Assembly (NCBI GenBank): GCA_963729715.1
Contig: CAVSPA010000004.1
Coordinates: forward strand, 608,001-672,000
DNA length: 64,000 nt
Source: an uncultured delta proteobacterium
GTDB taxonomy: Bacteria; Desulfobacterota; Syntrophia; Syntrophales; UBA2185
Direction of reading: 5' to 3'
Shown here in pieces: positions 45,956-48,688 of the stretch. The translations under genes and the position numbers were made by a program. A model generated the notes under the pieces. It was not told where the DNA came from. It did not search any database and worked only from the letters and a program-made list of their open reading frames with translations. The number at the start of each line of letters is the position of its first letter. The first letter of the stretch is position 1.

Positions 45956-46440
45956 AACGCAGGAGTTCAGATTTATCTAACAGAAAACTGATTGTATTAC
46001 GTTCAATCTGACATCAAGACACTTGGAGATTAATTAATCTATAAGCTTGGTAGCAACTGTGTTTCACGTCAAGTAGTATTTTAACAGCCCGATTCATTCC
46101 AACAGGTACCATTTTTGATCATTGTATTGAGGATAATCATAAGCTTCCTCATGCAGGCAGTAATGGCAACTTTGTGTTTCTTCCCAGAGCTGATCAACCT
46201 GTTATAAAAAGCTTTTATCTTGGGGTTGTGACAAATGCCTGATATGACACACATGTATAATACGGAACGGATTCTTGCCCTGCCGCCCCAGATGGTACGC
46301 TTGCCTTTGTATTTGCCACTATCCCGATTCAGAGGTGCAACTCCAACAAGGGCCGCTATCTGCCTTCGGTTCATTGTTCCAATCTCCGGCAGATCAGCAA
46401 GGACGGTCAATGACATAACAGGCCCAACACCGGGAACACT

Positions 46441-47858
46441 GGGATATTGTCAATAGTTGTGGATGAGACATTTTTCAACGTATCCTGACCCTTTTCAAAT
46501 TCAAGCAGCTTCTTTCATTATTACACCATCAACAAATCTGATTCCTTCAATGACCTTGCAGATAAGGTTATGCCCCCTGATTCTCTGCCAAGTCTTTTCT
46601 GCTTCCATGGCCAATTTGAAAACCATGGTAAGTGTTGCCAATCTTGAGCCACAACCTTTTGTCCGTTTTGTGCGAAGCCTCACAGTGGCAAAGGTTGATT
46701 CGATAGGATTTGTAGACCGGATATGACGCCAGTGCTCTGCCGGGAAATCATAAAAAGCAAAAAGACTTTCTTTGTCTTTTCTTAAACACTCGCATGCTTT
46801 TTCATATTTTGCCTGATATTGAGATAAGAAATAATCATAGGCTCTAAAGGCTTCATCCCTGGTCGGAGCCATATACATGTCGCAGATATGAACCTTGGCT
46901 CTCGGTTGAACGCTCTTTGGCATCTTATCCAGGATATTGGCAGTCTTATGAACCCAGCAACGCTGCTCTATTGTTTCCGGAAACTCCTCCCGAAGGGCTG
47001 CCCAGAATCCCAAGCCGCCGTCACCAACCGCCAACTTAGGACCTTCTTTAAGCCCCCTTTGCTTGAGATCGCGCAGCATCTCCTGCCAAACCTGTTTGCT
47101 CTCCCGGTATCCGTCAAGAAGGGAAACAAGTTCCTTCTTCCCGTCTTCCAATGTCCCCATAATGACCAAGATGCATTGCCGCTTGTTCTCCACATCTCCC
47201 AAACGAACATTGAAATAAATGCCGTCTGCCCAGAAATAAACGTATCGCTTATGGGCAAGATCCCGCCCCGCCCAGTTTTCATAATCTTGTCCCCAGAGAG
47301 TCTTTAATCGAACAATATTTGTGGCGGAAAGCCCCGTTGCGTTCTTTCCTAATATGGATTCTAGTGCCTCACTGAAATCCCCAGTGGAGATCCCCTTAAG
47401 ATAGAGTGCCGGTATTAAAGCGTCTATTGATGGAACTCTTCTCATATATCTCGGCAAAATAGTGCTGGTAAAAGCCTCGCCTTCTCTCTTGTCGTGAATG
47501 CGGGGCTGTTTCACTTGCAATGGCCCAATGCCAGTCACAATCTCTCTTTCCGGTAAGGACCCGTTCCTCACAACCATGCGCCGACCACCATTATCTCTCG
47601 CATCCTTGAAACTCTCAATGTACTCACTTATCTCATTCTCTATGGCCGCCTGCAACATCCGACAGGCGCCTTCCCGGATAATTAACTCCAATGCGCTTTT
47701 TGATTCTTCTTTAACTTGCTTTTCCAGATAATCTCGTTCATTATTCTCCATGGGCGTATCCTTCTTTCTCCCCTCTCGCCAAGGGGGCTTTAAGTTAAAC
47801 TACACTTATTTAGGATACGCCTTCTTTTTATCCTGTCCACAACTTTGGGTTATATCTC
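46441..47858 (-). mobile_element. Complete IS256-family insertion sequence
   Basis: Imperfect IRs GGGATATTGTCAATAGTTGTGGA / GAGATATAACCCAAAGTTGTGGA; 9-bp TSD GGGAACACT at 46432-46440 and 47859-47867. Confidence 0.93.
46501..47751 (-). CDS. IS256 (Mutator) transposase
   Basis: RNG, LYLKGISTGD, WADGIY, GDGGLGF, QRCWVHK, STNPIES. Confidence 0.95.
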   Translation of the reverse strand: MENNERDYLEKQVKEESKSALELIIREGACRMLQAAIENEISEYIESFKDARDNGGRRMVVRNGSLPEREIVTGIGPLQVKQPRIHDKREGEAFTSTILPRYMRRVPSIDALIPALYLKGISTGDFSEALESILGKNATGLSATNIVRLKTLWGQDYENWAGRDLAHKRYVYFWADGIYFNVRLGDVENKRQCILVIMGTLEDGKKELVSLLDGYRESKQVWQEMLRDLKQRGLKEGPKLAVGDGGLGFWAALREEFPETIEQRCWVHKTANILDKMPKSVQPRAKVHICDMYMAPTRDEAFRAYDYFLSQYQAKYEKACECLRKDKESLFAFYDFPAEHWRHIRSTNPIESTFATVRLRTKRTKGCGSRLATLTMVFKLAMEAEKTWQRIRGHNLICKVIEGIRFVDGVIMKEAA

Positions 47859-48454
47859 GGGAACACTTTGCAGGATCTTGTCCATATGCCGCCAATGCGG
47901 GCTTTTTTTGATAAGATTTTCAACCTCACGGTTGATTTTGGCAAGTGCCTTCTCCAGCCCTTTAATGCTTCTTTCTATATCTTTTTTCGTCCACTTCGAA
48001 GCTGTGGTCAAACGGTTTTTCTCAGCCGTCAACATTATGATGATCTGGCTGCGCCTGGTATTAAAAGCATCCAGCATTTCCGTTTCCTCGGTCTTTAATG
48101 GCCTTATCTCCGGCCTCACCGAATCTGCAAATCGTGCAATAACATGGGCGTCAATTTTATCCGTCTTGGCCAGAACACCCATAGCTTTGGCAAAATCTCT
48201 CACCTGTCTGGGATTGACACAAACTGCGGGAAGCTTTGCAACAACCAGGGATCTGAGAGCAGCCATTTCCAACCCCCCTGTGGCTTCAAGCACAATTAGC
48301 TCCGGCTGTTTTGACTTTACGAAATCCGTCAGCAAAGATATGCCGTCTTCCGTATTGGCAAATGTCATAAAATCCACCTGAGGCCTTACTCCTACATCAA
48401 GTTTCTCCTTCGAAACATCGATACCGATAAATGTTTTCTCCTCTTTCATGTTTT

Positions 48455-48600
48455 GTTCTCCTTTTCCCTTCCTTGCGAAAGATGCGGGATCTGTTTAAGT
48501 CCCTGGCAACTGTTCGGGTTTAATTTGGAGAAGGTCGCAGCGACCCAAGCTACCAAACGGGCTCTGCCCCACGGTGAAAACGGTCTACTGCAACCAACGC
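48455..48600 (-). ncRNA. Predicted IS110 bridge RNA (target- and donor-binding loops)
   Basis: Stem GTTGCAGTAGACC/GGTCGCTGCGAC encloses TTTTCACC-hairpin-TTGGTAG; the second loop contains ACAGTTGC and CGCAAG; all four match the element junctions. Confidence 0.8.
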
Positions 48601-48688
48601 AACACGTATTTATATTATTCTTATTTAACATATGCTATTAAGTTTTTATGCATCTACTAAACGATTTTGATTATACAAGGTGGAGACA

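Follow-up and report, generated by a model that had tools for sequence, protein, structure and literature searches.

The window, the whole stretch of 64,000 nucleotides that was analysed, contains on its minus strand an element of the IS110 group that spans positions 48679-46052 (2628 bp including both CT dinucleotides); all of its features given below lie on this strand. Its recombinase gene is split into a 5' part (47859..48449) and a 3' part (46081..46440) by a 1418-bp IS256 element (46441..47858; transposase 47751-46501), which is bordered by a 9-bp duplication (47867-47859 and 46440-46432) and identified by NF033543 (302.7 bits, cut-off 150). Four other full copies of the same IS256, with the same ends and their own 9-bp duplications, are present in the genome. 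Without the insert the IS110 element measures 1201 bp, and we consider it very probable that it is an IS621-like insertion sequence, mobile via bridge-RNA-guided recombination. An initial annotation had drawn the element as 46052..48686, of which 48679-46052 stands, while 48686-48680 is target and not element. The window also holds another IS110-family gene (48689-49495), about 96% like a copy on contig C8 and broken off at 48708 after a CT, with 28 bp between this end and the left junction of the element. Moreover, a further IS110-family gene is split into two frames (53089-54332), and an IS21-type istA/istB pair is found at 39478-41776.

Three copies of the element, all with the same ends, exist in this genome (G000): the window copy and one each on contigs C2 and C6. 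The C2 copy, at C2:8520-9720, is intact and encodes a protein of 313 amino acids. It differs from the window element solely at left-end position 18, and both gene pieces in the window are letter-identical to it. Since this intact copy exists, no repair is needed, and the earlier proposal to rebuild the recombinase by removing IS256 can be dropped. In the C6 copy IS256 has the opposite orientation and sits a few bases upstream of the stop codon; one further base differs. Two of the three IS110 copies carry the same IS256 (window 46441-47858; C6:486735-488148), each at its own position and in opposite directions. The C6 copy adjoins a transposase-like gene and is about 80 bp away from a stretch at approximately C6:485410-485490 that is repeated at C6:492866-492998, where it abuts an apparently tRNA-like sequence. 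With IS256 interrupting its recombinase gene, the window copy is inactive in cis; both its ends and its RNA sequence are intact, however, so that the C2 copy could provide the protein in trans.

The recombinase scores 217 bits against NF033542 (cut-off 140), and a PDB search with it matches only ISCro4 (3e-36, 128 bits) and IS621 (1e-34, 123 bits). The 5' part of the gene encodes a RuvC-like DEDD domain (D11/E55/D97/D100) and a coiled coil, the 3' part a Tnp domain with S235 and the wedge Y256/M257/I260 (numbering of the intact protein). D11, E55, D97, D100 and S235 align with D11, E60, D102, D105 and S241 of IS621, whose positions were taken from the available text of PMC11208158, and the Y/M/I wedge is in place.

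Counted with the cores, the non-coding ends comprise 230 nt on the left, upstream of the gene, and 29 nt on the right. At the left junction the host half-site TCTCCAC (48680..48686), whose letters vary between the three copies, is followed by the CT core (48678..48679), the first bases common to all copies. At the right junction the left-donor half-site ACAGTTG and the CT core (46052..46060) precede the host half-site ACCAA (46047..46051), identical in its five letters at all three copies. Each copy has a CT core at both junctions without further duplication. The target TCTCCAC-CT-ACCAA and the donor junction ACAGTTG-CT-TGTAT, which the initial annotation had rebuilt, were both recovered from the flanks. 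The right donor half TGTAT is shared with IS621. Joining the ends would bring the -35 box TTGACG of the right end (46067..46072) to 17 nucleotides from the -10 box TATAAT of the left end (48670..48675), the spacing noted previously for this predicted circularisation promoter, and both boxes are kept in close relatives. Of 78 inverted pairs, the 25 longest include none that links the left and the right end.

The left end encodes a predicted bridge RNA of about 200 nt (48464..48663), with a 5' end placed from the -10 box. Its target-binding loop with outer and inner stems (48534..48594) was defined by folding and covariation, its donor-binding loop (48466..48518) by alignment and covariation. 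The four guide strings, TTTTCACC (48580-48573), TTGGTAG (48556-48550), ACAGTTGC (48513-48506) and CGCAAG (48477-48472), lie where they had been placed before, and the IS621-type layout and guide assignment hold. The left target guide TTTTCACC(G) occupies 48572..48580; its last base mismatches the core T and its first base is probably linker. The right target guide TTGGTAG (48550..48556) is of the extended type, with 7 nt including the core, and is followed by the handshake guide CT (48548..48549). In the donor loop, the left donor guide ACAGTTGC (48506..48513) is followed by a discontinuous right donor guide (48472..48483), which we infer to consist of AU (AT 48483-48482, nearly invariant in alignment A1), a 5-nt bulge and GCAAG (48476-48472). 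The pairing proposed for CGCAAG is thereby retained for GCAAG, whereas its first C does not pair with the donor. The donor-loop handshake guide is GA (48470..48471). The C of the target-loop handshake can pair with donor position 7 (G) and the G of the donor-loop handshake with target position 7, which is C in 24 of 25 site clusters. Neither first handshake base can pair with position 7 of its own substrate, and the second bases are unpaired. Pairing with position 7 of the other substrate is the rule given for IS621 in the available text of PMC11208158.

When the left end was shuffled 20000 times with its dinucleotides preserved, no shuffle contained the four guide matches in their order, and a single one contained both exact matches. 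Taken one at a time, the wobble-containing left target guide turned up in 1612 of the 20000 shuffles and the short right donor guide in 10050, so that each of these two is weak by itself. An alignment of 24 left ends, ranging from near-identical down to approximately 47% protein identity, recovers two loops on covarying stems: 94.4% of cells are paired, with two-sided change in 17 of 23 pairs, although the structure was drawn from the same alignment, which favours it. Pairing as high was seen in 0 of 500 shuffles, and sliding the partners lowers it from 94% to 35-51%. The stems covary while the guides vary. The left guides are same-strand and the right guides reverse-complement copies of their sites, in the order and loop positions of IS621. 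Folded without constraints, the 230-nt left end does not stand out (z -1.39), and its two target guides pair with one another; an Rfam search of loci L001 and L002 gave no match at E up to 0.1.

The two other copies occupy AGTTCAC-CT-ACCAA and TGTCCAC-CT-ACCAA, which gives NNTYCAC-CT-ACCAA as the motif shared by the three sites. Of the predicted target TYTYCAC-CT-ACCAA, the part CAC-CT-ACCAA holds in all three copies, but position 2 fails in two of them. The genome has five unoccupied CAC-CT-ACCAA sites and no unoccupied TYCAC-CT-ACCAA site, which is only suggestive because by our own arithmetic approximately one is expected by chance. Five paralogs were found for the left flank of the C2 copy; all are empty and have one CT. 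Four of them have the same seven left letters and CT-AC with other letters at right positions 3-5, and the fifth differs more. These empty paralogs fix the boundary of the element, and they suggest that the right guide is read beyond two bases. Insertion within a gene was considered and rejected, as none of the three rebuilt sites is spanned by a long frame.

On the left side, seven letters separate the conserved G from the core guide. IS621 has one letter more before its core guide (linker C47-U49, guide A50-U58; available text of PMC11208158), and left target position 1 is apparently unread in our element, the T of the guide being present in 5 of 25 site clusters (L086 and L104 left out). 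At positions 2-7 the guide letter matches in 17, 22, a mixed number, 25, 25 and 24 of these clusters, and position 2 thus appears to be loosely read. At position 4, a T or G in the guide pairs off with Y or R in the target (8/4 versus 2/11, Fisher p 0.015). A cruder de-duplication of left flanks, which merged different sites and has been superseded, gave p 0.12.

Searches of genome and metagenome collections yielded 67 and 79 loci, and the closest relatives come from Syntrophales or delta proteobacterium records. Relatives with 94-99% protein identity hardly differ in their donor ends and donor guides; the donor loop is without variation among close relatives, and its guides match the joined ends. 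The right target guide, in contrast, exists in six versions, which read ACCAA, ACAAA, ACCTA, ACTAA, ACTTA and ACAAT. Right guide and right flank are readable in 27 loci including the three copies of this genome; L100 was dropped as a duplicate site, leaving 26. The right guide matches its own flank at five of five letters in 18 of the 26 loci, or in 21 if G-U pairs are allowed, and at right positions 3-5 it matches in 69 of 78 comparisons (46 expected). Among the 720 permutations of guide types the true assignment ranks first, as it does again when the four poorly assembled loci L099, L103, L104 and L118 are removed (full match in 15/22), although these permutation values overstate independence because the loci are kin. 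The full match is missed by eight of the 26 loci, five of which, e.g. L007, L017 and L016, miss it even with wobble; they may go back to older guides, to guides that act in trans or to half-match events. As judged from sequence, guide letters have changed naturally among near-identical relatives, and the landing sites have changed with them.

An apparent avoidance of A at right position 6 (0/24 clusters) was discarded, as unoccupied members of the target repeat described below have A there in 3 of 27 cases (Fisher p 0.24). Contigs of runs X1, X7, X15 and X19, four of the 24 runs listed, contained no circle junctions or empty alleles, which is no evidence of absence because contigs drop rare forms. 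Contigs of two DNA and two RNA runs cover relatives, and such cover by itself cannot establish transcription. Two loci have unusual left ends. At L011 the core is absent and the end of the flank is donor-like, which may reflect a donor-to-donor or half-match event. At L084 (G008:C8) the left end stops after the right target guide and the handshake bases, and unrelated DNA starting with ACCAA follows, as though the target loop of the element itself had served as a site.

The landing sites frequently belong to a dispersed, intergenic repeat of two boxes, CAC-CT-AC and, about 37 nt further on, GATTAC-NNN-TTGAAA. Of 41 flanks (L075, L104, L092, L112, L100 and L088 left out), 24 have GATTA at a distance of 25-42 nt to the right of the core, mostly at +37; in a control window none of the 41 has it, and the random frequency is 1.7%. 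A profile built from flanks of other genomes has 38 matches in this genome and a refined profile 66; the reversed genome has none with either. All 66 members lie outside ORFs on a crude map, most of them antisense to neighbouring genes, and 18 of 24 close pairs are direct repeats, often around one or two genes. Examples are C4:698677-698760, C13:24374-24469, C10:113029-113114 and C2:4251-13492. Pre-insertion sites score at least 10 bits against the repeat model in 13 of 21 cases (L100, L104 and L011 left out), compared to 1 of 374 random CTAC windows. For the relatives, from whose flanks the first profile was started, this test is partly circular; for C2 it is not. The scores are 25 for the C2 site and 6.5 for the C6 site, whereas the site of the window copy gives no score and has GATTA only at +13.

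The window site thus differs from the repeat, and its two flanks may stem from different original sites, brought together by deletion or recombination between copies or by use of half-sites, so that the rebuilt target would not be the true pre-insertion site. We regard this as rather unlikely. In its favour, a different IS110 gene is cut off at a CT 28 bp to the left, 14 letters of the left flank recur in a repeat member on C8, the right flank is without a second box at the normal spacing, and no empty allele of the site was found in the genome. Against it, both halves fit the guides, and the guide model is built on three copies and relatives, not on the window site.

The enrichment of GATTA lies far beyond the 14 nt read by the guides, and a DNA feature beyond pairing is reported for ISPpu10 in the part of the literature available, both as would be expected if a protein or host factor at the repeat mainly chose the target through the second box and the RNA only refined this choice. 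Most repeat members, however, are empty, and ACCAA is present in none of the 27 readable unoccupied members but at all three occupied sites. The commonest versions in the unoccupied members are ACCTA (6) and ACAAA (4), both of which are guide alleles in relatives. Moreover, the window copy was inserted at a site with neither a model score nor GATTA at the usual distance, and a guide fitted to a repeat yields GATTA enrichment without a second determinant. We therefore hold selection by a protein or host factor to be improbable. Finally, that the guide matches are leftovers of target capture or end homology is almost certainly wrong, for the strand sense, order and loop positions of the guides are those of IS621, the stems covary while the guides vary, and flank changes follow guide changes.

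As to the nature of the repeat, an attC or REP hairpin was tried and rejected (mean z about 0.1, below -2 in 1/26). No match to the integron integrase TIGR02249 exceeded the cut-off in this genome or in 14 control genomes, and no IS91-type transposase was matched here or anywhere in the control, a negative of no weight for that reason. IS200/IS605-type Y1 transposases have 16 matches in the genome. Tyrosine-recombinase matches lie within 1.5 kb of a repeat member in 8 of 25 cases, compared to 5% of random windows, an excess limited by the clustering of both in variable regions. Two copies of a tandem tyrosine recombinase pair (364 and 297 amino acids; C3:43641-45001 and C6:110285-111645) are found beside repeat members. 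In 9 of 17 loci of a 279-amino-acid XerA/XerD-like recombinase, three of them in this genome, CACCTAC occurs at a fixed position approximately 130 nt upstream, and likeness between the loci breaks directly after it; members of the repeat are often found about 100 bp from where this recombinase starts. We read this CACCTAC as a putative attachment junction, and the repeat and the 279-amino-acid recombinase possibly form a cassette system with non-hairpin sites.

Sequence comparison, the basis of the whole reading, establishes the ends, the CT core, the catalytic residues, a two-loop RNA with covarying stems and guide-target covariation. By analogy to IS621, the right and left ends would be joined in a circular intermediate, completing a sigma70-type promoter from which the RNA would be transcribed, and four recombinase subunits would bind it. 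The target loop would then open a site of approximately N-T-T-Y-C-A-C-CT-ACCAA and the donor loop ACAGTTG-CT-TGTAT, and strands would be exchanged at CT, aided by handshake pairs at position 7. Specificity would be weighted rightwards, with about six left and five right bases around the core. The clade lands mostly in a dispersed repeat that varies just right of CT-AC, and its right guide has diversified over those letters.

Much of this has precedents. The mechanism, the longer guides on the right, the concordance of guide and target, the targeting of repeats and natural redirection are known already from the available parts of PMC11208160, PMC11208158 and PMC11187229, and the same topics also run across those of 10.1101/2025.05.14.653916, 10.1101/2025.10.25.684509, PMC13626964, 10.64898/2026.03.19.712850, 10.64898/2026.08.31.748434 and 10.64898/2026.08.14.744561. 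In this literature, as far as available, 85.7% of IS110-group elements have a predicted bridge RNA, and one study alone screened 72 orthologs. IS621 (available text of PMC11208160 and PMC11208158; PDB 8wt6) shares with our element the DEDD and serine recombinase, the long left end, the two-loop RNA, the CT core, the circle promoter, a discontinuous right donor guide with a G-T pair and the handshake guides. Its protein, however, is distant (123 bits), and according to the same texts its right target guide has 4 nt instead of 7, its right-donor-guide bulge 2 nt instead of 5, and its target is a REP hairpin rather than a non-palindromic repeat; moreover, seven letters lead from the conserved G to the core guide only here, with position 1 apparently unread. 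ISCro4, or IS622 (available part of 10.1101/2025.05.14.653916; PDB 9t56), has the same architecture and is the best PDB match (128 bits), but its activity was measured in human cells whereas ours is an element read from DNA.

For IS110-group orthologs, longer right guides and guide-target concordance are reported in the accessible material of Durrant 2024 (PMC11208160). Supplementary file 4 of that paper, as far as available, contains the same donor motif at least 337 times, with similar donor-loop sequence, so that the different specificity initially claimed for our element is true of the target only; its target-loop strings had no matches in that file, which is gapped. ISEc21/ISMch6 and the attC- or REP-targeting IS1111 elements (available text of PMC11187229) are alike in the natural reprogramming of guides between relatives and in target sites that are part of repeats or of other mobile elements. 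ISEc21 and ISMch6, however, are a pair at 72% protein identity, compared to six guide alleles at 94-99% here, and the IS1111 RNA lies downstream of the gene instead of upstream. The 2954 plasmid records matching the recombinase are all below 60% identity and give the clade no named member; the closest named element among the plasmid matches listed is of the ISMno7 family of IS110 (44.7% identity). Among the matches listed in a literature search was no paper on the clade or its target, which is no proof of absence.

The element adds an intact, multi-copy predicted bridge recombinase distant from IS621 and ISCro4, a modest gain in a large and actively mined family. Its series of guide alleles and its junction-like target are what most deserves further attention. 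From the six right-guide alleles and their matching sites one can read off which positions are strict and which accept G-U wobble. New biology is more likely to lie in the target, where a dispersed, junction-like repeat is tied to a 279-amino-acid tyrosine recombinase. We tentatively propose, at somewhat less than even chances, that the clade parasitises recombination junctions of an undescribed tyrosine-recombinase cassette system found in bacteria of the Syntrophales type, with the left guide reading the conserved element end CAC and the right guide tracking the variable letters that come with each junction. If so, the core would lie in the crossover region CT-AC, the clade would be a bridge system with a shortened left guide and a full 7-nt right guide, and six or more guide alleles would form a natural series around a single protein.
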